A stretch of DNA of 58,794 bases, the filler included, from Sanchytrium tribonematis (taxonomy: Eukaryota), in the NCBI GenBank assembly GCA_018985235.1. It is 4 parts of 4 records of this genome, joined end to end, with 100 filler letters (N's around TTAATTAATTAA, not from the genome) between each part and the next. Parts side by side here need not be neighbours in the genome. Positions count along the whole stretch, not along the records: positions 1 to 14,719 come from JADGIG010000163.1; positions 14,820 to 29,448 come from JADGIG010000164.1; positions 29,549 to 44,132 come from JADGIG010000165.1; positions 44,233 to 58,794 come from JADGIG010000166.1. One strand, 5' to 3'. The translations under genes and the position numbers were made by a program. This document shows positions 1 through 46,064 of the stretch, piece by piece. The notes beneath the pieces were generated by a model. It searched no databases. It was not told where the DNA came from and was given only the letters and a program-made list of their open reading frames with translations. How positions within the stretch are numbered: the stretch's first letter is position 1; every line of letters starts with the position of its first letter.

Positions 1-570
1 CACTCTTTCTTCAAAAAAGTTACGAGGAAGCAGAGGTCTACTTGGATAGTATAAGTAACTATATGGTAAACAATGATGTATTTCATTTTAATATTGGTCA
101 AATCAAAATGAGATCCTTAAAATTCGAAGAGGCTGCTAATCATTTTAATCAAATTAAGAACCTTGAAATTAAAGATTCGTGGTTGTATATATTTTGCCTC
201 TGCAAATCTCGTAATTTGGTCTCATTTAGTTATTAATCTAAATCAAGCCGATCTTGTTTGGGAAATGTATTTAAAAATGGAAACTTCCAATATTTCTTTT
301 AGCTTATTGGCCTTAATAGCCAATGAATCTTATAAATCTACGCAATATTTTTATTCTCTCAAGGCATTTGATATATTGTACAATGTAGATTCGCATCCAG
401 ATCATTGGAATGGTAAAATAGGATCAATTTGTGGTGTACTTAAACAACACATACAAGACCAGGATAATATTCTTTATAAACAGCAACTTGCAGATGCTGT
501 GGAAACTCTTAAAGACACAAGCTCGCCCGACAGCCTTGAAATACTTGAATTAATTAATAAATACCAATAA
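1..570 (+). CDS. IFT56: Intraflagellar transport protein 56 (TTC26), 5'-partial, two exons (<1-210, 230-570)
   Basis: WEMYLKMETS-x-SFSLLALIANESYK...KAFDIL...W-x-GK matches the TTC26 C-terminus; the 19-nt intron 211-229 joins ORFs 42..236 and 163..570 (CKS-L-INLNQ). Confidence 0.85.
211..229 (+). other. 19-nt spliceosomal intron GTAATTTGGTCTCATTTAG
   Basis: GT-AG; removal restores the IFT56 frame. Confidence 0.9.
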
Positions 571-579
571 TTTTATTGT

Positions 580-1686
580 TTAGTCTTCGTCGCTACTAAA
601 TACTATATTTGACTGGTGCTTAGGCTTATCGTCTTTTTCAGACTCCGCATCTTCTTCAACATCTGCACCTGCCTCTAATTCCTTTTCAAATTCCTCTAGT
701 TCGTCCAATTTTTGATCATCGGCAACCACAAAGTCATCTTCTTCATCATAGTCATCCATTTCTTCATCCTCGCTATAATCTGCCTGAAATTCCTCAATTT
801 CATAGCCATTACTCAGACCCTTTCTCTCTTGCTTCTTTTCCAATTTTCTTTGTAGCTTTTCTTTTTCAAGCTCTATTCTTTCTGCCTCTAGTGCAGCCTT
901 CTCTGGATCTTCATTTATAAGAATTTCTTTGGCTTCTGAAGTATTTTGAGCTTTCTTTTTCCGTTGTTGTCTCAAATATGTACTTAATTTTGAAGTGAAT
1001 TTTTGAGGTGCCATGTAAAATTTTCGCTCTATGTTATACAAAAAGTTGAACATGTCTTCATGCTTGACTGACATGAACATTTTTTGCTTATCAGAGACCT
1101 CAGTCAAATCAAACAATTCTTCCCCCACAGCCATCGAATAGGTTCCATCTTCCCATTCAATCAATTTTGAATTTGAAATCATAGTAGTTTTTTGATTTGA
1201 TTCCTCGTACCTCCAACGAATGCCACCCAACGCGGTCCGTTCGGTTTCCTCAGAATCGTCACCAGTATATCCAGAAGGTAGAACGGTGAGTCCGTTTGCC
1301 AGTTTAATCTGAAATCCCTTGCCATTATTAACAAGCGGATATGGGTAGGAAGGGAAAGTAATATGCATATCCTCGATGTCACTTTCTTCAGAGCTGACTG
1401 GCGTATTATCAAGTGGAATATCTAGTGGTATTTCTTTTTCAACAGGTGTTGGCTTTTCTGCATCTTTCACTTTGGCTTTCTTCGGTATCATTAGCACCTC
1501 GTCCTCTATTATTGGATCGTCTTTCACTTCTTCATTTTTAGCTACAACATCATTTCCAAAGATTTCATCCGCTAAAGAATTTTTATTATTGGCCTCTTCC
1601 ATTTCTACATCAGAACCAAAAAGCTCTTTTTCTTGAGAATCATCGACTCCAAATAAGTCAAGTTCCAATTTATTTTCTTCACTCAT
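580..1686 (-). CDS. LEO1: Paf1 complex subunit Leo1
   Basis: IRWRY...SNSKLIEWEDGTYSMAVGEELFD Leo1 core with acidic flanks; first ATG at 1686. Confidence 0.85.
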   Translation of the reverse strand: MSEENKLELDLFGVDDSQEKELFGSDVEMEEANNKNSLADEIFGNDVVAKNEEVKDDPIIEDEVLMIPKKAKVKDAEKPTPVEKEIPLDIPLDNTPVSSEESDIEDMHITFPSYPYPLVNNGKGFQIKLANGLTVLPSGYTGDDSEETERTALGGIRWRYEESNQKTTMISNSKLIEWEDGTYSMAVGEELFDLTEVSDKQKMFMSVKHEDMFNFLYNIERKFYMAPQKFTSKLSTYLRQQRKKKAQNTSEAKEILINEDPEKAALEAERIELEKEKLQRKLEKKQERKGLSNGYEIEEFQADYSEDEEMDDYDEEDDFVVADDQKLDELEEFEKELEAGADVEEDAESEKDDKPKHQSNIVFSSDED

Positions 1687-2001
1687 CTCCAAGTTTCTAA
1701 ATTTTATTGTGGCAAATTATCCAATAGGATCAAATTTCCATCAAGTACTATTTAAATTTCTTGAAATTTCGTAATTGTGAATGCGAAAAATATGGAATTG
1801 TTAATTATGTTAGTTCACCAAACAAAGTCAAAAAATAAATTAGTTAACTCTACAGATGTTAAATGGAATGATTTAATAGCACTATTGAAGATTTAGCCAT
1901 AAAATTCTGGGATGCTTATAATGATTCGACCAATTCAATTGGATCAAATTGCTGATTGGATATAAATCAAAGATAAAACTCCCTTTCAAACGACTCAAAT
2001 T

Positions 2002-2505
2002 ATGATATCAAAATTAATTCTTTCGACTCTTTTAGTGTCAAGCGTATTTGCACAGTCTGAGACTCCAACAGATTGGGATGTCAATTACACAAAAACTATT
2101 GATTCATCAACAAAAGCCAGTTGGTGTGCACGACAAGTGTATGCGTGCAAAACGATCTGTTATACAAGTGATAATCCAGAGCCAAAGTCAAATACTTGTG
2201 ATGCGGATACATTAAATTATAGCTGTACTTGTGGCGATGGAGTTGTTCCTAAATTATCAACATTTACTGACACAATTTATTATTACGAATGTAACGAAGT
2301 CAAAAATAGATGCGCACAGAATTGTGGTGGTAAAGCTAATGAACAGCAATGCAAATCTGATTGTCAGAATAAGTATCAGTGTGCAACTACGGCTCCTAAT
2401 TCTGCTGATAGACAGCCACTAAGTGGAGCAAAGAAAGTTGATCTCGGCAATAGTGCGACTCTTGTCAGCACAACTTTTGTTTTATTTGGAGCTTACTTGG
2501 CTTGA
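2002..2505 (+). CDS. Secreted, probably GPI-anchored cysteine-rich fungal protein
   Basis: Signal peptide, Cys-rich domain (WC...C...C...NTC...YSCTC...), hydrophobic C-terminus. Confidence 0.7.
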   Translation: MISKLILSTLLVSSVFAQSETPTDWDVNYTKTIDSSTKASWCARQVYACKTICYTSDNPEPKSNTCDADTLNYSCTCGDGVVPKLSTFTDTIYYYECNEVKNRCAQNCGGKANEQQCKSDCQNKYQCATTAPNSADRQPLSGAKKVDLGNSATLVSTTFVLFGAYLA

Positions 2506-2512
2506 ATAAAAT

Positions 2513-4712
2513 TTATTTACTTTCTAACTTCTTTTCTATTTTCTCAATAACTTCTACTGCTGCTTTAGGGATTTTTGTTCCGGGTCCGAACACTGCACTT
2601 ACACCTTTCTGAAATAGAAACTCGTAGTCTTGCTGAGGAATAACGCCACCAGCGACAACTAGAATGTCTTCACTGCCTTGAGCTTTAAGTGCATCGATTA
2701 ATTGGGGAATTAAGGTTTTGTGACCTGCTGCTTGACTGCTAGCACCAACGACATGAACGTCGCTGTCAATCGCTTGTTTCGCAACTTCTTCTGGGGTGGC
2801 AAACAGTGGTCCAATATCAACATCAAATCCCAAATCTGCAAATCCAGTCGCAATTACTTTGGCTCCTCTGTCATGCCCATCTTGTCCCATCTTCGCAACT
2901 AGAACACGAGGTCGTCTACCAAACTTTTTTTCGAAATCCTCGGATTTCTTAATTGCTCTATCAATGTCAGGGTCATTTCCATATTCATTCATGTATGCAC
3001 CTGAAATTACTCTTGTTTGTGGGTTGTGTCTCCCCCAGATTTGTTCTAAGGCAGCGCTTATTTCCCCGAGGGTGCAGCGATATTTGGCAGCCTCAACAGC
3101 CAAAGCCAACAAATTGCTTTCTTTCCAATTGGTAGGATTTTGAGGCTTCTCTTTTGAAGCCAAATCTGTCAAAGCTCTTAAACATTCTTGGGCTTTAGAC
3201 TCATCTCTTTCGGCTTTCATCTTATTAATTCTTGCAATTTGTGATTCTCTGACCTTTGTGTTATCAATTTGTAAAACCTCAATCGCATCCTCTTTCTCGA
3301 GCTTAAATTTGTTGACTCCCACTATAGTTTCTTGACCAGAGTCAATTCTTGCCTGCCGTTTTGCAGCAGCTTCCTCAATTCTTAATTTAGGAGATCCAGT
3401 TTCCACTGCATTACTCATTCCACCAAGCTCGTCGATTTCTTTGATAATTTCATTGGCTTTGTCATAAAGCTCTTGAGTCAAAGACTCCATCATATAGCTA
3501 CCGCCCCATGGATCAGCAACTTTTGGAATCAATGCTTCTAGTTGCAAAATCAACTGGGTGTTTCTTGCTATTCGGGAAGAAAACTGGGTGGGGAGCCCGA
3601 TAGCTTCATCAAAGGAGTTGGTATGTAAAGATTGAGTTCCTCCTAGAGTTGCAGCCATTGCTTCCACTGTAGTTCGAATAATGTTGTTATAAGGATCTTG
3701 TTCGGTCAAGCTCCATCCACTAGTTTGACAATGAGTTCTTAACAAAAGTGATTTTTCTTTTTTGGGGTTGAATCTTTCTTTTACCTTCTCTGCCCATAAT
3801 CGCCGAGCAGCACGAAGTTTTGCAATTTCCATGTAAAAATTCATTCCGATCCCAAAAAAGAATGATAATCGCGGTGCAAAATCATCTACACTCAGACCGA
3901 CTTGGGTTCCTGTTTTTATATACTCTAGTCCGTCCGCAATTGTAAAAGCTAACTCTAAGGCATTATCCGCTCCAGCCTCCTAAATCAATTAAAAATACTT
4001 GCATATGGTAACCGGAAATCGAAATTGAATTAAATTTCGGCAATATTTTTGATTGGTACTCGAAAATGTCAGCAATAATTCGCATAGATGGTTTTGGAGG
4101 ATATATAAAAGTATTTCTAACCATAAATTCCTTTAAAATGTCATTCTGAATAGTGCCTGAGAGTTCTTCGTATTTGGCGCCTTGTTCTAGACCAGCAACA
4201 ATATAGAACGCTAATATTGGCAAAACCGCCCCATTCATAGTCATAGACGTACTAATTTTGTTAAGTGGTATCCCATCAAACAAAAGCTTCATATCTTCAA
4301 CAGAGTCAATGGCAACACCAGCCATTCCAACGTCACCTACGACCCTTGGATGGTCGCTATCGTATCCTCTATGTGTTGCCAAATCAAATGCAACCGAAAG
4401 ACCTTGTTGTCCTGCCTTCAAATTCGCTCGATAAAACTTGTTACTTTCCTCGACAGTAGAAAAACCGGCATATTGTCTAATAGTCCATGGTCTATGTGTA
4501 TACATTGTGGCTCTGACACCTCGCGTATATGGATAGAATCCAGGGAGCGGTGGTTCTGATCGAATATCGCTTTTTTGGTAAACTGGCTTAAATTTTATGC
4601 CTTCAGCCGTGTTGAAAGACAGTTGCTCAAAAGGATCTTTCTCTGATTTTATCTCCTTCTGGGCTAATTTCTTCCATTTGTCGGTTGAATTTCTTAAAAT
4701 CCTTCGCAACAT
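2513..4712 (-). CDS. MUT: Methylmalonyl-CoA mutase, adenosylcobalamin-dependent (exons 4712-3999, 3979-2513)
   Basis: [36 protein letters not shown]12 motif; spliced junction gives [17 protein letters not shown]. Confidence 0.97.
3980..3998 (-). other. 19-nt intron GTATTTTTAATTGATTTAG
   Basis: Removal restores the conserved MUT peptide HMQEAGA. Confidence 0.95.
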
Positions 4713-4883: not shown

Positions 4884-7800
4884 ATGCTACCAAAATCGGA
4901 CAATCTCTCAGATGTCGATGATAAAGTAGAAACCAGCGTTCTACACTTTACAAAGGATAAAGAATTCCATGCGAAAGAGTTAACCCTATCAAAAGCGATG
5001 CAGATTGGAAATGAAGATTGGGTTGTGGAAGAAGTATTAGATTATAATAACTCTAAGTATTTGTTGTTATGGCATGGCAACGAACAATCGTGGCAACCGT
5101 ATCAAGATTTATTTGACTGTCCAGAACTTGTAACTCAGTTCTGGGAAGAAAAAGAGAAGGCAGGCATTCGCATCCCGAGAGAAATTCAAAAACAAATGAA
5201 AGAAATGGAAGCATATGCGAATGGAGAAAATGATGATTCGGAGGAATCTGAGGAAGATTTACCACACACTCCGAGAAAAAGAAAAATTTTGGCTCAAGCA
5301 GATGTTGATTATAACAAACGCAGGAAAATTGATTCGTCGAATTCTGATGATTCTATGGATGATGTCCAAGATGAGGACTACGACATCGCTGCTATCAGTT
5401 CTCGAAGATCGGGTAGAAATGCCCAAAGGGTGGGCTATGCTGATATGGACATAGGATCTGCCTTTTCAAGTGATATGAGTGCCGATGAGTATTATAAGAA
5501 GAAGAAAAAGAAGGCAAAAAAGATCGAATTGATACCTGATTTTCTAGTGGATGAAATACTGACTCATAAAGTAGAGAATACAAACGGAAAAGAAAAGATT
5601 TTATTTGCTTGCAAAATGGAAGATACGAGTTTTCATGATATTAAATGGATTGAAGAATCAAAGCTATCCGCGCAGAGCAATGCGAAATACAGAAATTATA
5701 TGAAGAAGAAATTTAATGACAATCCAATTTCACTTGAAGAATCCTTTGACAAGGCTTATCTAAATGTTCATAAAGTAATGATTGTTGAGGAAGATGAACT
5801 TGTTAATGATGAAATTGTATTATTTCACATGATCAAATGGGAAAATTTAAGTTATTTGTACAAAACATTTGAAACCAAGGTTGAAAATTTACCGGGATTT
5901 CAGCTTGCTTATGACAGATACTTGCTTAGTTTAAAATGCGCTGATGAGGTTCTGAAAAGACCTCCGAAGAAAAGAGAGTTTACGCAGATGATGACCCAGC
6001 CGAAATATATTCCAGATGGGTTAACATTAAAAACACATCAACTCTCAGGAGTGAACCGAATGCTTTATAATTGGTCCATCAAAAAATCTATGATACTTGC
6101 TGACGAAATGGGATTAGGTAGTTTTAATTCATATAGGCAAAACTATTCAGACTATTGTTTTTATCAATTATCTTTATGAAAAATATAAAATGGGCCCCTT
6201 TGTCATCATTGTACCTAACTCCACTCTTGATAACTGGGAACGAGAATTTATAAAGTGGGCTCCCACTATGAGTGTCTTAATGTTTTCTGGAGACAGAGAA
6301 GATCGAGAAAGTGTAAAGTCTTATGAGGCCTTTGGTAGCAATGCTGGACTGCGCTTTCATGTACTTATAACAACTTATAGCACCACTCGTCTGGAAAGCG
6401 CATTTCTTAGAAAATGTGGTCCGTACGCTGCATTAGTGGTTGATGAAAGTCATAATTTAAAAAATGAGCGATCTCTACTTTATCAATGTGTGGGTCAATT
6501 GCAAGTTGATTATTGCTTGTTTTTGACTGGAACTCCAGTTCAAAACAAAGTTCGAGAATTATTTAGTTTGCTCAACTTTTTAGATCCTGCGGAATTTGAA
6601 GATGTTGATGAGCTAGAAAAACAATATGAAGCTCTAACTAGTGATTTAGTTTTGGAACTGCTACAAAGATTGAAGCCATATATCCTTAGAAGAACTGTAA
6701 AACACATCGCAAGAGAGCTTCCGCCAAAGAAGGAAATTGTTATACCTTGCGGTATGACTGCTTTACAAAAGAAATTATACAAATCCGTAATTGAAAATAA
6801 TATGACCTTACTGAGTGCGTTGGATCAAAATGGCAAAGTTTCTAGAACAGATATTTGGATGAAGTTGATGCGAATTACCATGCACCCCTATGCGGTTGAT
6901 GAAGATATCGAGCCAAGGAATTTAAGCAAAGAGGAGCAGTTGAGATTGCTAATTGCTAGTAGTGGCAAATTTCTCGTTTTATTTCAAATATTAGATAAAG
7001 TTCGACAAGACAAACACAAAGTGATCATATTTGCCCAACATAAGAGAAGCTTGGATATTTTACAAGATATTTTATTTTTTAAATCGTATCCGCATTTTAG
7101 AATGGACGGAGACACGCCTAGAATGCAAAGGCAACCGATGTTCGATCGGTTCAATTCTACCGAAGATATTTTCTGCTTTCTAATGACGACGCGATGTGGT
7201 TCAGAAGGCATCAATTTGACTGCAGCCTCAACTGTTATCTTGTTGGATATGGATTTCAACCCTACAGTAGACAAGCAAGCTATTGGAAGATGCTACAGAA
7301 TTGGTCAGAGTAATTCTGTCCTTGCAATTAAACTGGTTACAACAGATACAGTCGATCAGAGAAGATGGGACATTGCTAATAAAAAAAGCACACTCAATCG
7401 GCTTCTCGTAAAGCCACTTGACTCTGAGACTGATCTTAAAACAGACGATATCGACAAAATGATACAAATGGGATTTAAAAAATTGTATCAAAATGAAGAC
7501 GACGATAAGCATTTAACTTTGACAGACAATCAACTGAAGGATTATTTGGATCGATCTAACGCGGTCATTGATGATCAAGTCGATGAAGAGGACGATGCAT
7601 TTGCTGATGGTGATTTGTCCCAACCTTTGCACTTGTCGCAGCCGCCTGTCGCAAATGGTAAAGACATCATTGAAGTTCCAAAAGATGAGGTTGAATTCTG
7701 GGATGAGCTTATTACGACCAAAATGAAAGAAGAGGAAGAACGCCGAGCAAACGAAGTCTTTGGCAGAGGAATGCGTAAGCGTCAAAACTTTTCTTTGCAA

Positions 7801-8259: not shown

Positions 8260-9070
8260 CATTGCCGGAAATCAACAATGCCATTAGAATCTAGAGAGTA
8301 GTACTTGGATTTTTGGTTTATCAATATAATTATCCTCTCTATTTTTCCCCATGAAACCGTAAATTGCAGTTTTGTCCGTGTCGGCTAGCGCGTTATCAAT
8401 AGTCTTTAAAGTAAGAAATTACACCAAAATATACGTTCCAAATGAACACTCAACTCGGGGAGGTATCCTCTAACTCTGAACCGCAATTGAATCGGCAAAT
8501 GCCATTATTGCTATATTGATATAATTATCAAACTAAACATCTAATTATTTTAAGAAATCGAAGGATGTTCTTCGTACTAACTCAGAATCTAACGTATCAA
8601 CCGTATCGCTAATCACAGCACAATCTAATTAATCGCTAAATTTACAGCACAATATAATTAAAATCGCTAATTACAGCACATTAAGTCAAACCGCTTAACA
8701 AAGCACACCGCTATTACAGCACAATACAATAACATAAAATATTATCGTAAATCGCTTATTTAAACTAACGTATTAAACAAAGTATATCGAAACTAGAATT
8801 TTTCTAGCTTTAACTGAAGTAATTTACTTCAAAAAAACCCAAGTCAAGGAATGAACCAGTGGCACTTCTAAAGTTGCAGTATCAAAATGGCTAACTCAAA
8901 GCAATCTTATCGTCAATGGCACCAAAAATCACTAATTGAAAAATTCAATTGAATATGTATTTGAATCTAATGCAGAGTGAACCCGCCGAAAATGGACCTA
9001 AAGAAGATTGTAGCTTGAACTGTAAAAATTGTTTAAAAACTAGGGCTTTATTGCTTCTTTGACTTAAACC
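8260..9070 (-). ncRNA. Candidate structured long non-coding RNA of unknown class
   Basis: ORF-free; upstream TATAAATA on the minus strand; several hairpins that pair fully only on the minus strand (G-U); repeated stem-loops. Confidence 0.4.
8605..8725 (-). repeat. Five degenerate stem-loop units UGCU(G/U)-loop-(U/A)AGCG
   Basis: CGCT..AGCA units on + at 8607-8620, 8634-8649, 8665-8678, 8692-8705, 8709-8721; array bracketed by CTAACGTAT at 8589 and 8765. Confidence 0.85.
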
Positions 9071-9209: not shown

Positions 9210-9377
9210 ATGACCCGCGGTGATCAAAGAGACAGAGCTAGAGAAAAGAACAAAAAGAAGAACGAAAAAAATTCTAAAAAGCCGGAAGGGTCTTTTGCAG
9301 AGAGAAAAGAAAGGGATGCACAAGCTGTTAGAGATAGACAAAAGAAAGATTTAGAGAAGAAAAATGCACAGAAATAA
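9210..9377 (+). CDS. SERF: Small EDRK-rich factor (SERF/4F5 family), 55 aa, missing from the ORF track
   Basis: MTRGDQRDRAREKNKKK...RKERDAQAVRDRQKK is the 4F5 signature. Confidence 0.9.
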   Translation: MTRGDQRDRAREKNKKKNEKNSKKPEGSFAERKERDAQAVRDRQKKDLEKKNAQK

Positions 9378-9582: not shown

Positions 9583-12500
9583 ATGAGTTGGACGGGCAAA
9601 TTTGTTTTCTTGACCAACCCAGAAAAACAATTAGTTTCCGGTGAAGTCATTGCTGAACAGGAAACATCAGTCACTGTCACCACTGTTGATGGAGAGGAGC
9701 TGTTTTTGGATAAAAAAGCGGTTCGGGAAATGGATCCATCTGAATATAAGGGTGTGGATGATCTCATCAACCTGACATTTCTTGACGAAGCTGCATTATA
9801 CCATTCGCTATGGACGCGATTTTTTCAAAACAAAATTTACACCTACTGCGGAAATATTCTCGTGTCAGTTAATCCATTTAAAATAATTGACGATCTTTAT
9901 ACACTTGAAACAGCTAAAACATATTACAACGCAGAGTTCGGATCTAAGGACCCACATATCTTTGCTATTGCAAATGAATGTTATTCCTCATTAGGTCGTG
10001 ATCAGAAGAGCCAATGTGTCGTCATAAGTGGAGAATCTGGTGCTGGAAAGACAGAAGCCACTAAGCTAATTTTACTTTTTATTACAACAGTCACATCACA
10101 TACATCAGATGTGCAAGAACAAATTATATCCGCGAGTCCTATTTTGGAGGCATTTGGTAATGCAAAGACAGTAAGAAATGATAATTCAAGTAGATTTGGA
10201 AAATTTCTCAAAGTACATTTTAATGGTGCGGGACAAATTGTGGGTGCCACTACTAAACAGTATCTTTTGGAAAAGTCAAGATTAGTTTCCCAGAATAGAG
10301 AAGAGAGAAATTACCACATATTTTATCAAATTTTACAAGGAGCTTCAGATGAGTTAAAAGATAGACTTAAATTGACTACCGCAGAAGATTATTTTTATTT
10401 ATCCGGATCTACACCAACAATTCCTAGAGTCGATGACGCTGAAAATTTTAGAGAAGTTACTCGTGCCATGGAAATGTTGAATTTTGGAAATGCAAAGGAT
10501 CAAATTATTCAAGCGTTGGCAGCTATTCTTCACCTTGGGAATTTGCAATTCGATATTGATGATAAGGAAAAGATTTTTATAAAAAATAAGGATGTCTTGA
10601 CTCATGTTTCGGGTTTAATTGGACTCAATGTTGACGATTTTGGTAAAATTATTATAACAAGAACTACTGTCACTAGAGGAGAGAAGTTTGAAACTCCATT
10701 GACTAAGGAACAAGCTGCCGATAGTCGAGATGCAATTGCTAAATTTCTTTATGACAGTTTGTTTAGTTTCATTGTCGAGTTCATAAATTTAACGACCTCT
10801 AGCAAAGGTTTGACTAACTTGTATATTGGAATATTGGACATTTTTGGATTTGAAAATTTTGAGAAAAATAGCTTTGAACAATTTGTATTCTTTTTCTAAT
10901 TTAGTGCATTAATTTTGCCAATGAAAGGTTGCAATACTTCTTTAACCAGCATATATTTAAAATGGAACAAGAAGAATACAAAAAGGAAGGCATTCCGTGG
11001 TCGAGTGTTGATTTTATAGACAATGCACCATGTATTGAGTTAATTTCAAGAAAACCTATTGGAGTTTTGGCTTTGTTAGACGAAGAAAGTAATTTTCCAA
11101 AAGGAACTGATACAAGTTTACTTACCAAATTACACCAGCAATGTGTTGAAAGTAAGTATTACGTCAAGCCAAAACAAGCTAAACCATTATTTAGCATTGT
11201 CCATTATGCTGGGGAAGTGCAATATCAGATTGACGGGTTTATCGATAAGAACAAAGACACATTAAGACAAGAAATTTTGGAATTGTTTGGAACGAGTAAG
11301 GTTGAGATTATTCAGCAACTTTTCGCAAGTTCTGAAATCCCTTCTAATTATGATGCTGACAAAGGAATTACAATCAAGAATGCCACCACAAGATTACGTG
11401 CCAGCAAAACAGATAAGAAGGCCACCGCTGGAGCACAAAAGAAGGCCACACTAGGAACACAATTTAGTTTATCACTGTCAGAATTAATGGATACACTAGG
11501 ATCCTGTAATCCATATTTTGTGCGTTGTGTCAAACCAAATCAAAAAAAGGTTTGCGACAGAATCGACCGTAAGGTAGTTTTGGATCAATTACAATATTCA
11601 GGTATGTTGGCAACTGTGAAAGTGCGAAAGGCTGGATTTCCAATCCGAATGATGTATACAGAGTTCATTCGACGATACAATATGATCTGCTCCACGGCCA
11701 AAAACGCTAAGCCAAAAGACGCCGTAGATACAATCATTAAGGCTGTTGTAGCTACAGACCCATCAATCAACAAAGCATGGTTTTATTTAGGTGCATCCAA
11801 GCTATTTATGAAGCAAGATCTACAAAACATTCTTGAAAGGCGAAGAGGTGAAAAATTTGCCGTTTATGCGATCCGTATTCAAGCCCGATGGAGAGGCTAC
11901 AAACAGAGAAAAGAATACCTCAGAGATTTATTTTTAGTGGTCAGAATTCAAGTAAAAGTGCGTATCTTTGTCAGAAAAATAAAATTCCGACGACGAATGA
12001 GATCGGCACTTATTATTCAAAAAGTCTATAAAGGATATATCCAGAGAAAGAAATTTAAGAAGATGCTTGCAGCTTATAGAAAACAGCTTGAACAAAAGCG
12101 TATGGAAGAAGAGCGAGCTCGAGCAGCTGAAGAACAGGCAAAGTTGGATCAATTAAATGCCATGGCCATGGAATTGCCACCTGAAATGTTGAATCTTCCC
12201 CCTCCACCTATGTTGCCAGACTTAAATGATCTACCACCTCCACCCCCAATGTTCTTCTCCGACATCCCTTCATATAAATATGACGAAATGGCAGCGAAAG
12301 TAGGCAATTCCGTTCCAGATATCAATTTGGCCGATTTACCTCCACCACCTACATTCCCTCCTCCGGGGGCAATGAAATTTAAATCAGGATCGAAAGATTT
12401 GCTTGTTGTTAAAGATGATCGAAGAGAATCTGTGGCTACAACAAATTTAGACGACGATGACGATGTCAAGGTGGCAGAAGTAGCTTTGCCCGATGCAATT

Positions 12501-20512: not shown

Positions 20513-21208
20513 TTATTTTCTAATATATATACTATTAATGGCTTCGTCGCCCCATGCTTCGGCATCTTTAAAAGTGTCTTCATTTTTTAAATGAGTCCAT
20601 TTGGACTGGCCTTTTTTTCCGAAATTTTTGACTTGCAATATTTGAGGAAGATCACTTTTGTCCATTTTATCAAGACCAGTAGCTTCGTTGTAGTCTCTGT
20701 TGATAATTTGATTTAAACCGTCAAGATAGAATGCGCCTTTATGATAATGTTTTTGTAAATAATTTGGTTTCAAGAGCGTATTCTTTGTTTTAGCTTGTTC
20801 AAATAAACGCTTGGTATAAATTTCATTCCTTTCATGCTCTGGTAATGACCTGAAACTTTCAATTTCTTTACACAAATTATCATATGCCATTCTTTCTTCT
20901 TTGTCCCTGATTAACCTTTCTAACTCACGAATTTTCCAATTTTCTACTTCAAGCAAGGCATCCTCATTATCTGTATCGTCAACTGATTTAATTTGATATT
21001 CATCTGATTTCAAAGATGTCAACTTTGTATTGTTCTGTAATTTCTCATGATGAATCAGGAAATCAACATTGTCGTCATCTACAATTGATTTAATATATTC
21101 GTTTGGCAGCTTTAAATTCTTATTTGGCTTGACATATTGAATAGGGCTATATTTTTTTCCATAAATAGAATCAGAGTCACTAGTTCCAGATTCGCTTTCT
21201 GAGCTCAT
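20513..21208 (-). CDS. MFAP1: Splicing factor MFAP1 homologue
   Basis: WKIRELERL, LQKHYHKGAFY, QVKNFGKKGQSKWTHL. Confidence 0.9.
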   Translation of the reverse strand: MSSESESGTSDSDSIYGKKYSPIQYVKPNKNLKLPNEYIKSIVDDDNVDFLIHHEKLQNNTKLTSLKSDEYQIKSVDDTDNEDALLEVENWKIRELERLIRDKEERMAYDNLCKEIESFRSLPEHERNEIYTKRLFEQAKTKNTLLKPNYLQKHYHKGAFYLDGLNQIINRDYNEATGLDKMDKSDLPQILQVKNFGKKGQSKWTHLKNEDTFKDAEAWGDEAINSIYIRK

Positions 21209-26255: not shown

Positions 26256-26577
26256 TCAGAATTTGGGTTCTGAGAATGTTGACTTGGCTTTTTCCATTGC
26301 CATTTTCTTCAAAGTTTTTAAACCTTCCAGACCTGCAAAGTATAGCCCGAGTAGGCCTCCTGCTACTTTAAAATGCTGAAATGAATGCAAATACAGGGCC
26401 ACAAGAATAATTAAAAGGGATATTCCTAGGTTAGACAAAATTACCTTGAACGCTGTTTACAATACTCAACAATTCTATGACCACCTGGGTCAACATCTGC
26501 GAAGCTGATGACATAAATTTGATGGCCGGAACGATTGCTCCTATTGAAGACTTGATTACTGAAAGCCCTACATTCAT
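26256..26577 (-). CDS. Small hydrophobic membrane protein, 100 aa (exons 26577-26445, 26425-26256)
   Basis: ATG exon joins ORF 26256..26438 via a 19-nt intron with a CTAAC branch site; no family recognised. Confidence 0.6.
26426..26444 (-). other. 19-nt intron GTAATTTTGTCTAACCTAG
   Basis: Matches the consensus of the other introns and removes an in-frame TAA. Confidence 0.8.
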
Positions 26578-27169: not shown

Positions 27170-27252
27170 GGGAAGGTGGCCGAGTGGTCTAAGGCGCTAG
27201 ATTTAGGCTCTAGTGTGCTCTGCACGCATGGGTTCAAATCCCATCCTTCTCA
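27170..27252 (+). tRNA. tRNA-Leu(UAG)
   Basis: Acceptor GGGAAGG/CCTTCTC, D arm, anticodon arm CTAGA-TTTAGGC-TCTAG, long variable arm, ATGGG-TTCAAAT-CCCAT T arm. Confidence 0.95.
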
Positions 27253-31893: not shown

Positions 31894-33637
31894 TTAGAAT
31901 GCAGAAGAATACCTCCTAGAGCCAGGATTCGATTTTGTTTGATCAGGTTTGGAAAGAGCGTCGATAAGATTCTCTAGTTCCATCCGGTCCATGATTCTAT
32001 GGATATGAGGCCAAGATCGGTGTTCGGATATCCTAGTTTTTTCTTCATACCTTTCCTTAGTAGGGTCTGTAAAAGTTTGCAAGAGATCAGAAAGTTTAAA
32101 TTCAGGCTAAATAAAATTCAATTACAGTAATAGTCACATTTCCATGAAATTTTTGCAACCAGATAGCTTCAAAAACTTCCAATAATGGCGGCAGCATTTG
32201 CATTTCCATAGTCACTCGGAGCCATTTCCTTAGGTCCAGTTTTATACTATGCTCCAGAAATGATAAAAAATAGCCACCTCTCCAGCCAGAACCACCACGA
32301 TGTAAATTAGGTTTTCCGGCTGTCCCTTTCTGATTGAAGAAAAAAGGAAGTACGTGAGGATTGACCTGAGAGACTATAGTGAAGTTAATATTTAATTGCT
32401 GATTTAATTCCCTTGGGATGTCCATTCGGAGACTTCCATCTCGGAATTTTTTGCCCCACCCAGTGAATGGAACCATAAAAACTCCAGGCGGTCCTTTAGA
32501 ATAGCTGTCTTTAGGGTGAGGTCTAATATCTTCTGGTATAATTCCATACTTATTTGGAATACTCTTATTTGATTTCATCATTAACGTTACGGGGTGAAGA
32601 ATGGAAGGTAGAGCCGAAGACGCAAGAACTGCAGACCATATAACTACTTGCGGAGCATTTAAGTGATTTAGTAATTTGTTCACCCCAACCTCAGAAACTA
32701 CGCTAATATTCCAAGTTCTACCTGTTCTATGATAAGCTTCCAAAAATGTTAGGTCGCCATACATTGCTCTCATTTGCACAATCCAATTTCTTTCCTCGAA
32801 AAACTTTCCTTCGTTGAATGATCTTCTGAGTTTGACCCAGTTTGATTCTTCACAGGGTCGAAAAAAAGTATGAAAATTTGGATTAAAAAATTCTTTCAAT
32901 TCTTCATCCCTCCAAGTTGCCAAAACGCTACCAAAAAGAGATCCACCACTAGCTCCAGAAAGAACCTTAGGCAAGCAATTATTTTCAAATAAAGATTTTA
33001 TGACACCCACATGATATAAGCAATAGAATGCTCCACCAGATAAATTTAGGGCAGTTCGCCCATACAAGCTGTCTAATTTTAAAAGGAATTCTTGTTTATC
33101 TAAAGCTAAAGAGTGTACAAATTTGACTGCTTCTAGCCTAGTATCCAAAAATTCTCTAATAATTATTTTTGTACCAAGAAACGAACGAGAGTATAGTTCC
33201 TCAGCGTCAATGTTGCCCACATTTGGTTTACAAGCCGACCTTATCAGTATATCTCTACAGAGTTCATAATCGCCTGTAATCATTGCTTCTTTCATATTTC
33301 CCGTGAGTTCTTGCAGAAGTCTGAAGTCGTACAATTTAGAGATATTCTGTTTCTTCCATTCGACAGCTTTTGTGTGGTCATCTAAAAGATTCGCGACCTT
33401 ACAGTACTCGTCAAAATTTTCACATTCAGATAATAATTGCAATAAATGTTTCAATTTTCCATGTACTACAGAGCTTTCGTAACCAAAAACCACAAGCCTA
33501 ACTAGTAAGTATATAGTTAAATCTAAAACCAGGACAATACAAATACCAAGTAAGAAAGGGTACTTCAAAATTCTATGGAAAAAAGATGTATTTTCTCCCA
33601 TAAAGTTTCGAATTAAAAATTTTACAAATTTATTCAC
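31894..33637 (-). CDS. Patatin-like triacylglycerol lipase (Tgl3/4/5 family; exons 33637-32126, 32106-31894)
   Basis: LSGGA, GASGG, DLTFLEAYHRTGR, DG motif, VSQVNPH; splice junction GNVTIT|PEF. Confidence 0.9.
32107..32125 (-). other. 19-nt intron GTAATTGAATTTTATTTAG
   Basis: Joins ORFs 32102..33637 and 31894..32082. Confidence 0.9.
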
Positions 33638-37084: not shown

Positions 37085-38459
37085 TTATAAATGCAATTCT
37101 TTTAGGTATTGGTATGATCTTAAGAAACTTTTTTCATAAAAATTAGGCATGTGCTGTATCATATCTGAATCAAATTGAATATCCAAAAGTTCTCTTGGAT
37201 CGACTTCTTGAAGAATCATATGTGGTTTGGGTTTTTTACAGGGCTTGTCTTTGTAAATTCTTTTTGTAGTAGAAATTTTAGAATGTTTGTGCATCCAAAA
37301 GACACGACCAGCAAGAAGCATCTAAATTAGCAAAAAGTACTTGAGGAAATTTGTTTTCGATCGGCTTGTTCAACTCAGAAAATAACTGTTCTTGTGAGTA
37401 TTCATCTTTATAATTATCAATTGTAGAAATGTTTTCTCTTAGCCTTACCATTGCACTGTACGACATTCGAGACGCAAAATCGTGGTGATTTACTACACTT
37501 ATTACATGAGTTAAGGACGGAAGCAAGCTTGCGGTAACTACTGGCGGGGCACCATATGTTATTGCGTTGAATTGATATCCTTCAATTTCATCTATACATA
37601 ACTTAGACAGAATTGTGGCAACCGCACCTCCCATTGAATGCCCAAGAAAAGTTATTGATTTAGTATTAAATTGCAGAGCCCACTCTTTGATGTGATGCTT
37701 AATTTCCTCGAATATTATTACAGCGCTTTTATACATTCCTTCGTGTACAAAACCACCATCCCAAGGGTGATAATTGCAGACGAAGTCTGTGACTGCATCA
37801 TGAAAGCTCATTGTGCCTCTTACTACAATTACTATGCACTCTTTTATCTGGTCATAAATAACAAAATATGCAGGTTTAAAGGCTTTCACCTTTTCAGAAT
37901 ACATCAAAACGTGCGCTTTTGGTATTTGAAGATGTTCCCTTATAATTTTTTCGTTAGATTTGGGCCGAATGAAATCGACCAAATATGTGTTTCCATATCC
38001 GAATGTGTTCAAGCCTTTCCATCCATAAGAGCAAAGAACAATGTTAAAAAAATGAAAAACATGTTTCAATTCTTCTACCTTCACTATTGGATATTCATTA
38101 TAATCTTTAGCACAATGATATTGATAGTCTTTCAAAATGCTCAATGCCTTGAAACTAGAGAGATAGCCAACATTCCATCCATGGGAATATTGTTTGAATA
38201 AATCTGATATTTGAGATTTCCAACCTTCTTGCTTGTCTGTTTTATGCCAAACAATAATCAATTTGTTTCCATTTTTTAGTTCGTATTCTGATTGTTCAGT
38301 TATATTTGATAGATCAATGCATTCATCGTTAATTTTCAATTTTTCAAAGAGGATGGTGTGATGGGTAATTTCGAATTCAGCTTCATCTGCATACACGTTT
38401 TTATGTGCTATTGAAAAATTTGCAGCAGATTTGGGAACTAGAGTAATATGGATTCGCAT
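37085..38459 (-). CDS. Class 3 lipase, DAG-lipase-like (exons 38459-37341, 37321-37085)
   Basis: VRGTMSFHDAVTD, VHEGM, GHSMGG; catalytic His (QHMP..Y) lies in exon 2. Confidence 0.88.
37322..37340 (-). other. 19-nt intron GTACTTTTTGCTAATTTAG
   Basis: Joins KFPQ|MLLAGRV. Confidence 0.9.
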
Positions 38460-38775: not shown

Positions 38776-39617
38776 ATGGCGATTAGATTATTTGGAAGAG
38801 GGGACTCTCCAAAGTTACTGATTGTAGCCATCATTTTAAAATTTGGATTCGGTTTAGTGCATTACATATTGACCGGTCCACTTTTATGGAGAATTCATCC
38901 TACTCTAGTTATTATACCTCTTTATTTTTATTTTGTGTCATTTGCGAGTCTCTTTCATGCGGCCAATATGGATCCAGGTGTTTTGCCAAAATATATTGAA
39001 CAAAGAACAACTTGTCCCCCGGGCCTTGACTCTGACTCCATGGAACTGGGTGATCGGAATTTTTATCCATACATGCCAAAGGATTCTACAGATATCAAAT
39101 TTGTAGAAAGTAGAGGAAAAGAAATAGAAATTAAATACTGTGTTAGTTGTGAGTTATATAGACCACATAGAGCTGCTCACGACTCATCCTCCGATGAATG
39201 CGTGCTAAGATTCGATCATTTTTGTATTTGGCTGAATAATTCAATAGGAGAAAGAAATTATGTTTTTTTCTTCTGGTTTGTTATTTTGACTTGGTTACAG
39301 TTATTATACGTTTTGATCACAAATTTATATCTAGTTTTCGAATCAAAACCATTTTCTGCTGACACCATTTTCAGAAATAGACCAACATCAGTTGCATTAG
39401 CAATCGCCATGTTTTTCCTTTTATTTGCCTTAACTGGCCTTACCCTTTTACATTGTTATCTTGTTTCGTTTTAATTAATTAATATAGGAATGACCTCACA
39501 ACCAGGGAGCATCTGAAAAACATGAGTCGGGACGAGGTTCAACCACACAGATCGAGCAACATATTTGCCAACATCCGTTCAGTTTTGTGTACACCAAAAC
39601 CTCCAACATGTCTTTGA
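38776..39617 (+). CDS. Erf2-like palmitoyltransferase with a DHFC motif (exons 38776-39467, 39488-39617)
   Basis: DPGVLP, KYCVSCELYRP, DHFCIW; TTRE motif restored by splicing. Confidence 0.85.
39468..39487 (+). other. 20-nt intron GTTTTAATTAATTAATATAG
   Basis: Removal gives LVS-NDLTTREHL. Confidence 0.85.
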
Positions 39618-39649: not shown

Positions 39650-40394
39650 ATGGGGAACAATACTTCGTCCGAGGAAACTCAAATATATCCACTTGAAATT
39701 CCAAAATCAATCCGTATGATATTAATGGGACCACCAGGTGCTGGAAAAGGAACTCAAAGTCCAAATTTGACAAGTACATGGCCAATATGTCACTTAGCAA
39801 CTGGAGATATGCTCAGGAAAATAATCAATCCCGCGGATGGAAAAATCTCAGAATTGGGCCGCCAAATTAAAGATACAATAGCTCGAGGTGATTTTGTTAA
39901 AGATGAGCTTGTAATCAAATTAATTGAAAATGAATTAAAAACTCCTGCTTGTAAGGAAGGTTTCGTTCTTGATGGTTTCCCTAGAACTCGGGCTCAAGCT
40001 GAGGCCTTGGATAGTATGCTTAAGCATATGAATTTGGAACTCAACAAAGTTGTACAACTTGATATTGCCGATCCTGTTTTAATAAGACGAATTACTGGTC
40101 GACTTATTCATAAGTCATCTGGTAGAGTTTATCATAAGTATCCTGGATTAATATAGAGATTTCAACCCCCCTAAAGTTCAAATGAAGGATGATATAACTG
40201 GTGAACCTTTGTACCAAAGAGACGACGATAAAGAGGACGTCTTAGTTAAACGGCTTGCTAAGTTTAGAGAAGTGACAATGGAAGTTGGTGATTACTACAA
40301 GAAACAAAACAAATTGACTGTTATCAATGCTGACCAATCTGCCAAATCTGTATGGTGGGATCTTCTTGGTGTACTTTCTGGAAATAAATCTTAG
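39650..40394 (+). CDS. ADK1: Adenylate kinase (ADK1/AK2 type; exons 39650-40137, 40157-40394)
   Basis: GPPGAGKGTQ, HLATGDMLR, LDGFPRT, GRVYH|K-DFNPPK. Confidence 0.93.
40138..40156 (+). other. 19-nt intron GTATCCTGGATTAATATAG
   Basis: Removal restores the LID peptide YHKDFNPPK. Confidence 0.95.
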
Positions 40395-40440
40395 ATTGTT
40401 CAGGTATGATACGACAAATGCAGATGATAACTTTATTGAA

Positions 40441-41054
40441 TTAAACAATTGCACATTTTTTGTTCTTCTTAGTTTTTGCCAACAAAGCAGCACGAGTTGC
40501 GAATTCAAATACTTCTTTGACACCTTCGTTTTTTTTCGCACTGCATTCTAGGTATTTATACGCTCCAATTTTGTTTGCAATGTTTTGACCCTAAATTAAT
40601 CAAGATAACCTGTTCGCTGCTTACTGCTTTTTGATTCATTTTTGAAAGTTCTTCTGTGACTTTTGGATCATCTCTTAAATCTTTTTTGCAACCGATCAAA
40701 AGAAGTGGTAGTCCCGCGCAAAAATGAAGAACTTCGCTGATCCATTTTTCTTGAACATTTTCCAAACTGTCTGGACTGGCGATACTAAAGCATATTAAGA
40801 TAACATGACTATCAGGATAGCTTAGCGGTCTCAATCTGTCATAATCTTCTTGCCCAGCGGTATCCCAAAGAGCGAGCTCTACACGTTTACCATCAACTTC
40901 GACATCAGCGACATAATTTTCGAAAACCGTTGGGACATAAACCTCTGGAAATGTTCCCTTACTGAACACGATTAATAAACAAGTCTTTCCGCAAGCACCA
41001 TCACCTACTATAACAAGTTTTCCTAAATCAATAAAAAATACTTCGAATATCCAT
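40441..41054 (-). CDS. RHO1: Rho1 GTPase (exons 41054-41042, 41022-40610, 40590-40441)
   Basis: [51 protein letters not shown] CaaX box. Confidence 0.97.
40591..40609 (-). other. 19-nt intron GTTATCTTGATTAATTTAG
   Basis: Removal restores [20 protein letters not shown]. Confidence 0.95.
41023..41041 (-). other. 19-nt intron GTATTTTTTATTGATTTAG
   Basis: Removal restores MDIRRKLVIVGD. Confidence 0.95.
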
Positions 41055-41413
41055 GTGAGACACCGTTAGAGATATGACCCAGAAATTTTTCGAGTCCTCG
41101 TGAATTGCCTGATTCAAGAATTTTAATCAGTAGTCACATCATAATATTAGAAACGCTAAATCCCTGTATATTTGTAAGATTTTTTTGATTTAGAAAAATC
41201 AAAAGCATTACGATTAAAAAAAAGATTTCCAAATGTTCGTTGTAATTCGAAATTGATTTATAATTTGATCCGCAAGTTTTATTTTGATAATTTCGCTTTA
41301 ATGTGTAAATAAAAATACGACTTAATCTGAGAAGGGATCTCCGTTACGGAATATTGCAACAAATTGTTTTCACGTGTTCTTAAATTCGGTTAAAGTATAA
41401 CTTTAAACTTTCC

Positions 41414-41692: not shown

Positions 41693-41777
41693 TTACCAAT
41701 AAAACCTGTTTCTTTTACTTAAGTTGTCCTAAAAAACCTGAATAATTTTGCCTAAATCAATAAGATTTCCAGCTTGA

Positions 41778-43169
<1,392 letters not shown>

Positions 43170-43282
43170 ATTTTTATGTATTGAATTTGACTAATTTTTT
43201 CGTAGTTTCATGCAGAAACGTGAATTTGAAACATTACTAAAAAATCGAATCTGACCAATCAAATAGCTATAATTTATCAATC

Positions 43283-43938: not shown

Positions 43939-44132
43939 ATGTCCGTTTCAAAGGAGTTGATGTGGGCTTTCATCCCATTGTTCGTAATTTACATTGCATT
44001 GGGATTTCGGTTTTTTACCAATTACGCAATAAGATTTATTGGCATTCCACCTCAGCAAGCACAATATTTGAGCAGCTTAATTAAGGTAACTTGGACAATT
44101 AAAATTCTGTTTGGGTACTTCATCGATAAGTT
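43939..44132 (+). CDS. MFS transporter, folate-biopterin (BT1)-like, 3'-partial
   Basis: P.QAQ.L......W.IK.LFG...D resembles the BT1 N-terminal motif. Confidence 0.5.
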
Positions 44133-44232
44133 NNNNNNNNNNNNNNNNNNNNNNNNNNNNNNNNNNNNNNNNNNNNTTAATTAATTAANNNNNNNNNNNN
44201 NNNNNNNNNNNNNNNNNNNNNNNNNNNNNNNN
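44133..44232. other. Artificial contig linker
   Basis: N44-TTAATTAATTAA-N44. Confidence 0.98.
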
Positions 44233-44314
44233 ATTTATCATCTCGTCATATGATTGGATCATAATTCTCCAAGGGGTATCATTTGTCATTTATTCAATTT
44301 GTCATCTCTTTCCC

Positions 44315-44785
44315 ATGTTGCTAACTCTTTTAGTTGCATTTCAATTTGATTTCACCATCACTCAAAACTCCAAATCATATTATTTCATAGATTCATCAGA
44401 AGATGCCACTCAAAAAGAGACATTTAAAGATAAAAAATGGTTTATGAGTAAAGGTACGTATGACAATGGATACATAGTAGCATCCTTTTTATTTGGACCC
44501 ACCCGCAGTCAATCCCGTAATAGATTCACCGTTTTTAAAGCTATGGCTCATTTGAATGGATGTTTAGATTTGAAAGCGCCTATTCAAGTTAGATTAGATA
44601 GTTCTATTAATAAAAGATCATATCAGGTCAATCCAGATCCGTCATTTGTTAAGGAAATATTTAGAGGATTAGAAATAAATTATCATTTGGAATGGGAAGG
44701 TTACCAGGGTTTCAAATATTTATTGTCAGGATTTGGTTCACACGATGAAGATGAAAACCCTGAAGAAGAAATAAATCAAAAATAA
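44315..44785 (+). CDS. Putative secreted hypothetical protein
   Basis: MLLTLLVA|FQFDF N-terminus resembles those of the kinases downstream. Confidence 0.55.
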   Translation: MLLTLLVAFQFDFTITQNSKSYYFIDSSEDATQKETFKDKKWFMSKGTYDNGYIVASFLFGPTRSQSRNRFTVFKAMAHLNGCLDLKAPIQVRLDSSINKRSYQVNPDPSFVKEIFRGLEINYHLEWEGYQGFKYLLSGFGSHDEDENPEEEINQK

Positions 44786-44806
44786 ATGCATCTTATTTAT
44801 TAATCT

Positions 44807-46064
44807 CTATCCCCTTCTACCATCGTACATCACGCCAATTCTATCCATATAATAAGTGGGTTTAATACTATGTTGTTCAATATCTTCAAATTGAGAAACA
44901 CCACTCAATACCAAACACGAATCAATATTTGCATTTTTAGCAAATAATATATCTGTATTAATACGATCTCCCATCATAATCGTGGTTCTACTATTAATCA
45001 CTCCCTTTTTATTCAATAAATCCACTAAAAATGAACTTGGTTTACCACAAATAATGGGTGCGACATCTGTAGAAGTTGAAACACACGCAATTAAACTACC
45101 CGTACCAGGATATGAAATACCGTGGATGGGATATGTTTGATCATCATTGGTGGCTATAAATAATGCATTATTCATTGTAATAAAGTAATGCGCTTTACAT
45201 AATTTCATATAATTCACATTCAAATCAAATCCCATAATCACAGCCTAAATAAGTGAAATATACCTTGATGGATGGATCTGGTTTAATAATAATATCATTT
45301 AAATCATCTGGAACGGGTAAAACATGGTCATAAACATATTGGATGCCCACATCATCTAATTCATTCAAAATACCAGATTCACCAATGACATACACCTTGT
45401 CAGAATCACAATTAAATTGTTTACAATGTTGTAGAAACAAGGCAGTCATAGATGCAGATCCAAAACAGTGGTTTTTATCGATTTCTAGACCTAATTTCTT
45501 TAATTTCTTGACATAGGAAGTTCTTGATTTTGTGGAATTATTCGTGACAAAGTAGATTTGTTTGTTATTATCTTTTAATAATTGGATGGTTTCTATTGAA
45601 TTTTGGATGAGTTTATTGCCTTGCCATAACACGCCATCCATATCAAATAAAAATGTGTCATATTTATCAATGATGGATTTGGCATTTTGACTGGTGACTC
45701 GTATGACTTTTTTGGATTTGAGTGTATCTGATTGATTTGGGGATGATTGTTTGGATCTTTCAGAATCTTTTAATTCTTTTAATCGATTTGGGATTGGGGA
45801 ATTTGGAGATGTAATAGCGGATAAATTGGTATTACTGGTTGGAGATGGGTTGGGTGATTTGCGTTGATCATAAGCTTCATCCCAATCTGAATGGAGTTTG
45901 TCATTAGATACTTTTTCACTTCCTGATGAAAATGTTTGGGAATTATTCATTAAATCACGTCGAGGAGGGGGTGTGGGTTGTTTTTTATCAAATAACAAGT
46001 CATTTAATGAATGGGATATTTGTTCTTCATCTTTATCTTTTCTTTTAATTCTGTTTGACTTCAT
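44807..46064 (-). CDS. PHO13: HAD-IIA phosphatase (Pho13/PGP) with a low-complexity N-terminal extension (exons 46064-45264, 45244-44807)
   Basis: FDMDGVLW, VTNNSTKSR, GKPS, GDRINTDI. Confidence 0.9.
45245..45263 (-). other. 19-nt intron GTATATTTCACTTATTTAG
   Basis: Removal restores DPSIK|AVIMGFD. Confidence 0.93.

Follow-up and report, generated by a model that had tools for sequence, protein, structure and literature searches.

In this study we analysed a stretch of 58,794 nucleotides (nt) from the genome assembly GCA_018985235.1 of Sanchytrium tribonematis, a small sanchytrid fungus parasitic on algae, hereafter the window, and identified 14 segments of 19 or 20 nt that interrupt its genes. 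Judging from the sequence, these inserts are very probably introns of the major (U2) spliceosome, probably recognized by intron definition, in which a branch box is fused to the acceptor site and the A at position -6 is the predicted branch. They appear to be the shortest fungal introns reported, and an independently evolved example of the tiny-intron systems found in a few other eukaryotes. Four pieces, each about 14.6 kb long and separated by N spacers, make up the window; its DNA is eukaryotic and gene-dense, follows the standard genetic code and has an overall GC content of 34.1%, and the published GC contents of the two sanchytrid genomes are 34.6% for S. tribonematis and 36.3% for Amoeboradix (PMC8371127).

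Segments of 19 and 20 nt and the proteins they interrupt

Each of the 14 segments begins with GT and ends with TAG; twelve are 19 nt long and two are 20 nt, and the pieces of the window carry four, three, six and one of them, respectively, a density of 0.24 per kb (14 in 58.5 kb). The 3' end reads YTNAYHTAG in every case: T at -8, A at -6 and T at -3 are invariant, a pyrimidine occupies -9 and -5 throughout, and the branch-like YTNAY box lies at -9 to -5 in all 14, with position -7 free (A6, G3, T3, C2). The coordinates, the lengths, the GT-AG ends and the YTNAYHTAG terminus with its invariant positions had been reported in a preliminary description of the window, and direct reading of the sequence confirmed them, including the presence of the segments on all four pieces. 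On the donor side, +3 is A in 12 of the 14, and +5 is T in 11 and never G. A U-rich run sits 5' of the box, and none is present between the box and the AG. The inserts are AT-rich (23% GC) and differ from each other in sequence, and their phases 0, 1 and 2 are represented 8, 4 and 2 times. Reading through any of the 14 leads to a stop within 2-20 codons; a retained intron gives an early stop because the lengths are not divisible by three.

The motif GT...YTNAYNTAG was found 12 times at a length of 19 nt, where 40 shuffles gave 1.6 +/- 1.2, and 4 times at 20 nt; each other length between 12 and 45 nt yielded 0-4 matches. This test is partly circular, the motif having been derived from the same introns. 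Plain GT..TAG pairs at 19 nt are only mildly raised (77 vs 58.9 +/- 8.1). Within the bodies of open reading frames (ORFs), motif matches of 15-25 nt occur once in 41,124 nt, which indicates that hidden in-frame introns are rare. That one match, of 21 nt at 48854 in a kinase gene, was discarded because its segment fits the paralogue spacing by eye without removal. An 18-nt insertion in the methylmalonyl-CoA mutase gene (MUT) was also discarded, being protein sequence common to sanchytrids. An ab initio gene model with a flat length prior of 10-150 nt predicted introns of 19 nt more often than of any other length (4 of 18 calls, or 4 of 10 under a stricter penalty); it missed most sites and fused neighbouring genes, and we regard it as weak evidence. 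Most of its long-intron calls either bridged distinct genes or cut known sites wrongly, and no long intron is supported in the window.

Special attention was given to protein continuity, which can be judged independently of the motif. Cutting out precisely the segment produces exact, gapless continuity with homologues, structures or Pfam domains at 10 of the 14 sites. Restoration of a colinear protein is supported by homology at these ten, and at the other four the reading frame is restored. We wrote a protein-to-DNA spliced aligner that uses no motif and no length prior and accepts inserts from 8 nt upwards. In MUT (3980-3998, minus strand, phase 0; lengths are 19 nt unless otherwise indicated) the 19-nt cut was chosen by all eight homologues, and the exons abut without a gap. 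In the mitochondrial glycerol-3-phosphate dehydrogenase gene GPD2 (25539-25557, plus strand, phase 0) it was chosen by 59 of 60 homologues (60 of 112 qualifying), and in the Pho13/PGP-type HAD phosphatase (45245-45263, minus strand, phase 0), which lies on the fourth piece, by 42 of 45 (45 of 59). The Rho1 gene, on the minus strand, holds two introns, one after codon 142 (40591-40609, phase 0) and one in codon 5 (41023-41041, phase 1), for which the same cut was preferred by 34 and 32 of 40 homologues, respectively; at the first of these sites, four homologues preferred a frameshift.

Structures and domain models agree with these cuts. The exons of IFT56/TTC26 on either side of 211-229 (plus strand, phase 1) match residues 370-434 and 443-540 of structure chain 8bd7_E, with eight residues between them, as expected. 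In adenylate kinase, the intron at 40138-40156 (plus strand, phase 2) falls in the lid domain: the exons end at residue 159 of the AK2 structure 9fl7_D and restart at 161, and the split codon supplies the missing residue. The intron of a CHD-type SNF2 helicase (6118-6136, plus strand, phase 1) lies inside the Walker A motif, its exons ending at residue 512 and restarting at 514 of CHD1 (9ear_W) with the split codon as residue 513; a nested 16-nt alternative at 6121, picked by the ab initio model, was rejected because it adds one residue relative to CHD1. In a MyTH4 myosin, the motor domain is cut by a 20-nt intron (10885-10904, plus strand, phase 0), across which Pfam Myosin_head runs from 1-385 to 386-679 without a gap, and in a Pho80-type cyclin (21997-22015, minus strand, phase 0) the Pfam Cyclin match passes likewise from 33-125 to 126-149. 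IFT56/TTC26 (1-567, plus strand) is an intraflagellar transport B protein kept in this organism, whose flagellum is non-motile, and it is also annotated in Amoeboradix.

The remaining four sites were identified by frame rescue together with the motif. The intron of a patatin-type lipase (32107-32125, minus strand, phase 0) connects a 518-codon frame with Patatin and DUF3336 domains to a 70-codon frame, and that of a class 3 lipase (37322-37340, minus strand, phase 0) connects frames of 394 and 78 codons. In a ZDHHC9/Erf2-type palmitoyltransferase, a 20-nt intron (39468-39487, plus strand, phase 2) follows an exon that aligns with ZDHHC9 through its last residue; no match was found for exon 2, and splicing restores what we take to be a TTxE-like motif. 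The candidate at 26426-26444 (minus strand, phase 1) lies in an ORF of 100 amino acids (aa) with no Pfam or Atlas match, Atlas being also blank for the ORF at 26259-26423, and it is the weakest of the 14.

Related genomes and an ancestral intron position

The closest matches to the window's MUT are a protein from the ENA collection (81% identity) and that of Amoeboradix gromovi (78%), other early-diverging fungi reaching at most 75%; for GPD2 they are two ENA proteins and Amoeboradix, at 67-70%, with all others at or below 54%. Amoeboradix is thus the best named match for both. In a single-gene MUT tree (FastTree, 19 sequences), the window, ENA P0002 and Amoeboradix form one clade with a support of 1.0, which places the window in Sanchytriomycota; the clade stands beside Blastocladiomycota, a placement that carries no support in this tree. 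No sanchytrid DNA locus was recognised in the metagenome contigs (12 of 64 parts scanned, 80 loci kept; best identity 89%), nor in the GTDB and viral contigs, and the introns of the relatives were read entirely through their proteins.

For this purpose, the read-through tails of the relatives' proteins were back-translated and every intron length from 8 nt upwards was tried; as a control, the tail of the window's own GPD2 returned 19 nt. The GPD2 proteins of Amoeboradix (P0254) and of ENA P0252 and P0253 all stop matching at the codon of the window's intron, and their C-terminal domain is missing. Decoding the Amoeboradix tail yields a 19-nt intron: aligned with the next exon of the window, the downstream frame scores 87 across 23 codons, the second-best result being 10. 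P0253 also yields 19 nt and ends in CAG, scoring 34 across 7 codons. The Pho13 protein P0373 breaks at the window's intron codon and decodes to 19 nt. Rho1 is represented by ENA P0133 (97% identical), which is bounded by both intron sites and whose codon-5 intron, read through, measures 22 nt. The five introns of relatives that could be sized therefore measure 19, 19, 19, 22 and probably 21 nt, and all five have A at -6 and a pyrimidine at -5 and -9. The TAG end and the lengths of 19-20 nt hold in the window, and CAG ends and lengths of 21-22 nt occur among the relatives. One protein clustered with the GPD2 ORF (P0125) was dropped as an unrelated-looking peptide of 48 aa. Amoeboradix Rho1 is not among the best 120 matches; the gene is possibly split and uncalled, and this result proves nothing. 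The MUT intron is absent from the full-length proteins of Amoeboradix (P0003) and ENA (P0002), and it may be a recent gain. The MUT gene, which encodes a B12-dependent enzyme, occupies 2516-4712 on the minus strand.

These comparisons bear on the interpretation of the segments as errors of assembly or amplification, or as pseudogenes, with GT and AG ends arising by chance. Both sanchytrid genomes were published from whole-genome amplified DNA (PMC8371127), and one further frame break in the window has no explanation; errors would fit both facts. Against this, Amoeboradix and independent metagenome proteins show breaks at the same codons, with inserts of different sequence, which largely refutes the idea, and the flanking exons belong to intact essential genes. 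In addition, contigs of the DNA run X1 cross six of the sites without a gap; X1 may be the window's own source, and its contigs speak solely against an assembler slip. We consider an origin by error extremely improbable.

The decoded introns also separate two features that coincide in the window. One alternative is that the branch is not at the -6 A and that the acceptor is selected by length from the 5' end alone. In its favour, 12 of the 14 introns of the window measure 19 nt, and in myxozoans the weak A residues lie farther from the AG in longer introns (PMC13644364). The A remains at -6 in introns of 19, 20, 21 and 22 nt, however, and is consequently tied to the 3' end, which leaves selection by length with very little probability. 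Because the A stays at -6 while the length varies from 19 to 22 nt within the lineage, the spacing of the -6 A is a fixed feature. The fixed, ruler-like geometry proposed in the preliminary description is retained to this extent, whereas a ruler for the whole intron is too strong a claim for relatives of 19-22 nt.

The history of one site could be followed further. From 80 Rho loci that we fetched, presumably fungal, 22 showed an intron-like tblastn pattern, and 13 of these 22 have a phase-0 GT-AG intron of 47-437 nt after codon 142 (2 of the 13 loci look nearly identical). Since the same site holds these longer introns, the Rho1 codon-142 intron of the window is a shrunken ancestral intron. 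The codon-5 intron is present in none of the 22 other loci. The 13 Rho loci contain 50 introns with a minimum length of 47 nt and a median of 72 nt, and in 39 of the 50 a last YTRAY box is found, 11-35 nt from the end and never at 6; none of these controls has a geometry like that of the window introns. The proposal that the introns shrank independently from ordinary fungal introns is thereby upheld. Six contigs from the viral collection (L082-L087) carry Rho-like GTPases with 46-59% identity.

The same evidence argues against removal or bypass by another route, whether an endonuclease and ligase, a ribosomal frameshift or hop, or excision at the DNA level. The size of the inserts, below what most spliceosomes accept, would favour such a route. 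The segments nonetheless have GT and YAG ends, a branch-like box, phases distributed 8/4/2 and a site shared with long GT-AG introns, and they are AT-rich inserts of differing sequence; were a frameshift the sole process, six additional residues would remain in conserved motifs where structures show none. We judge a non-spliceosomal route highly unlikely.

It is also conceivable that the introns are real and the window unrepresentative, with many ordinary introns elsewhere in the genome and a normal spliceosome that tolerates a short class. Our view is limited to four pieces of about 14.6 kb, the core splicing factors look conventional in Amoeboradix, and Trichomonas has a short and a longer class (PMC12316389). 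This interpretation is disfavoured by the lack of any supported long intron in the window, by the ancestral Rho1 site, which holds 47-437 nt elsewhere and 19 nt here, and by the relatives, in which five of five decodable introns measure 19-22 nt; we hold it to be unlikely, although less so than the other alternatives considered here.

Predicted splicing mechanism and comparison with known tiny introns

Several features expected of U2-type introns are present: GT...AG ends in 14 of 14, restoration of the frame or protein, a branch motif, and, at Rho1 codon 142, a position shared with known introns. The typical fungal form is not seen, +5 being G in 0 of 14, the predicted branch A lying less than 11 nt from the end and the length falling below 45 nt. 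U12-type introns have a long invariant 5' motif and an extended branch box; in the window, +4 to +9 vary, and the box has five bases with a free -7.

Under the U2 interpretation that we favour, the major spliceosome would define each intron as a single unit. U2, whose branch-pairing site is described in PMC9505925, would base-pair with positions -9 to -5, the YTNAY box, leaving the -6 A bulged. The acceptor would be the YAG that comes first beyond the branch A, at a distance of three bases; the use of this first YAG would account for the lack of a pyrimidine tract between box and acceptor. The 5' end would consist of a weak GTA and a U-rich run. Branching would close a loop of 14-15 nt in the window and of up to 17 nt in the relatives, so that the lariat loop of about 14 nt put forward earlier fits the window as a prediction and is too small for the relatives. 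The 3' module would be constant and the 5' arm would take up the variation in length, which amounts to a fixed branch-to-acceptor spacing with a tight lower bound. With U1 and U6 covering +1 to +6 and U2 covering about +9 to +15, roughly two bases would be spare, setting the lower limit, and deletion bias in a compact parasite genome may have pushed the lengths down to it. In yeast, the second step proceeds without Slu7, Prp18 and Prp22 when the branch-acceptor distance is below 7 nt (PMC3392075). Because the predicted branch A lies 5 nt from the end, we propose that these fungi would not require Slu7 and Prp18 to complete that step.

We searched the Amoeboradix sheet of a published eggNOG table in full, by name and by identifier. 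The annotation lists U2AF35, U2AF65, SF1, U1-70K, SF3B1, Prp8, Prp16, Prp17 and Prp22, as well as Isy1, Brr2, Cef1, Cwc22 and Cwc25, and the spliceosome GO term occurs at 63 places. Slu7, Prp18, SF3B p14 and Yju2 have no Amoeboradix entry by name or identifier in this table, in which about half of the proteins are annotated; their absence from it would fit the predicted loss and is weak evidence for it. The remodelled spliceosome suggested in the preliminary description is at this stage a hypothesis. In the window, Rfam gave no small nuclear RNA (snRNA), and a gene for MFAP1 (Spp381-like), a B-complex spliceosome protein, lies at 20516-21208 on the minus strand (Pfam MFAP1, E 8.8e-46).

It is important to note that several points weigh against our interpretation. 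The evidence consists of DNA and protein sequence, from which splicing and the branch position are inferred. The four sites at 26426, 32107, 37322 and 39468 rely on frame rescue and the motif. With -7 free, the box matches the U2 pairing site only weakly; the donor lacks G at +5 in every case. The window comprises 58.5 kb, and by the rule of three, 14 short introns out of 14 would allow roughly a fifth to be long at 95%, as an estimate. Among the relatives, the intron of ENA P0252 is probably 21 nt on the basis of a tail that stops after six codons, the stop being taken as part of the acceptor with no downstream frame, and the read-through at codon 142 of P0133 stops too early for the intron to be sized. 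The absence of Slu7 and Prp18 comes from a half-annotated, intron-broken proteome, in which the name search also missed Prp16. Finally, a second DHHC palmitoyltransferase gene (22574-23357, plus strand) has a frame break near 22698-22752 with no GT-AG solution that bears the motif: those of 10-37 nt lack it and cut into a conserved segment. The segment 22698-22716 has 19 nt, the right frame, A at -6 and a TAG end, but it starts with TT; the break may reflect a non-canonical donor, an allele or a one-base assembly error.

A broader hypothesis is that a few thousand introns per genome have collapsed to 19-22 nt throughout the phylum, with a near-complete spliceosome that has lost Slu7 and Prp18, because every branch A lies five bases from the end, and with U1 or U6 changed to pair with U at +5. 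We offer this only tentatively, as somewhat doubtful on present evidence. If true, 19-22 nt would be the shortest typical intron length among fungi and animals.

The tiny-intron class as described here comprises the 14 window introns of 19-20 nt and the five introns of relatives of 19-22 nt, from a sample of the 58.5-kb window and those five. A close parallel is found in heterotrich ciliates, where Stentor coeruleus and others have introns of 15-16 nt (PMC9505925, PMC10245619) and the putative branch A of the commonest Stentor intron is at -6 (PMC9505925). The placement of the A is the same in 14 of 14 window introns and five of five introns of relatives, in line with the likeness to Stentor noted in the preliminary description. 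Both groups have U2-type ends, a GTA start, a TAG end, AT-rich sequence and very narrow lengths. They differ in that the heterotrichs are ciliates, their loop is 10 nt compared with a predicted 14-17 nt, and the YTNAY box is kept in sanchytrid introns; the origins are independent. A 3' geometry so alike across a deep divide points to a physical floor on the branch-acceptor distance, with A at -6.

Other systems share some of these properties. Mikrocytos mackini, also a parasite with two adjacent length classes and a conserved motif, has introns of 16-17 nt, about 224 in number and none in metabolic enzymes, and mikrocytids have 17-19 spliceosomal proteins only (PMC10245619); the introns of the window, in contrast, interrupt metabolic genes, their density is 0.24 per kb, and Amoeboradix, a relative, keeps U1, U2AF and SF1 proteins. 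Chlorarachniophyte nucleomorphs fall in the same size range, with introns of 18-21 nt, but they are relict nuclei of green-algal endosymbionts with a far higher intron density (PMC10245619). Myxobolid myxozoans and dicyemids, with median intron lengths of 22-27 nt, are likewise opisthokont parasites in which the 5' site is cut to GTa and positions are shared with the long introns of relatives, whereas their lengths spread wider and their branch A is weak and at a variable distance from the AG (PMC13644364). In Trichomonas, with introns of 23 nt and up, the branch site is also fused to the 3' end at a fixed spacing with no pyrimidine tract between; its box, however, lies at -12 to -8, its introns are few and they form two length classes (PMC12316389).

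Among fungi and their kin, the shortest introns that we found in print are those of microsporidia, of about 25 nt, and of Rozella, of about 30 nt (PMC6349667). They too are short and come from fungal relatives whose genomes are reduced, although they are longer than ours; those of Encephalitozoon are few, 5'-biased, mostly in ribosomal-protein genes and poorly spliced (PMC6349667). Sanchytrids branch separately from microsporidia and Rozella, near Blastocladiomycota, so that their introns shrank independently. A survey of introns in fungi gives, in the portion available, nothing shorter than the microsporidian and Rozella values (PMC8476143), and in the available text of the sanchytrid genome paper (PMC8371127) and of PMC10459994, the word intron occurs in a reference title only. 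We found no report of sanchytrid spliceosomal introns or of fungal introns below 22 nt in a literature search in which subscription journals were mostly not covered; within that coverage, the suggestion that introns this short are undescribed in fungi holds.

Annotation and other features of the window

The published sanchytrid proteins were predicted with TransDecoder on genomic contigs (PMC8371127), and all ten of the truncated read-through ORFs of the window that we tested are present as proteins in EukProt. The public proteome is therefore broken at intron sites, and gene callers do split these genes, as had been anticipated. In Amoeboradix, one public protein (GPD2, P0254) is truncated at the intron. 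At 0.24 per kb, a genome of 11 Mb would hold about 2,700 such introns if the window is typical. The phylum should therefore be re-annotated with introns shorter than 19 nt allowed, and its gene counts and part of its gene-loss calls revisited. With these introns, a fungal lineage joins the few eukaryotes whose introns are tiny and nearly uniform. Since fungal spliceosomes are the best studied and comparison with yeast structures is possible, the minimum intron size and the reason for Slu7 and Prp18 become directly testable.

The motif scan returned three additional candidates. Two 19-nt segments on the plus strand, at 8567-8585 and 8957-8975, both have A at -6 and end in CAG, the former with a complete TACTAAC box; they lie outside long ORFs, in a 1.3-kb stretch without any, and are possible introns of an untranslated region or a non-coding RNA. 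Just past the first of them, 8605-8730 contains three to five short direct repeats, imperfect and 17-18 nt long, at intervals of 27-72 nt, for which Rfam gave no match. The third, a motif-perfect 20-nt candidate at 41174-41193 (plus strand), is non-coding, with Rho1 on one side and a small basic ORF (41414) on the other; an X1 contig differs at 41191 (T to C), and the YAG end is kept.

The fourth piece (44233-58794) differs from the others in composition, with a GC content of 30.5% and a GC content at third codon positions of 0.24 compared with 0.30-0.32 elsewhere in the window, and it is more variable than the rest in the DNA run X1. An origin from another organism was set aside, since its intron has the same motif at a site common to the relative P0373; the piece looks like a fast-evolving region. 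It contains a divergent family of kinase-like genes (48493, 51713, 54384 and 55746), apparently secreted or N-terminally hydrophobic. The gene for a chitin-binding protein (53850) lies there as well, as do several orphan genes. Elsewhere in the window, all on the plus strand, we identified an intronless SERF-like gene of 55 aa (9210-9374; Pfam SERF-like_N), a tRNA gene with a long variable arm (27170-27252) immediately upstream of dihydroorotate dehydrogenase, and an intronless gene for a STE12-type transcription factor with C2H2 fingers (41856-43166), a fungal hallmark.

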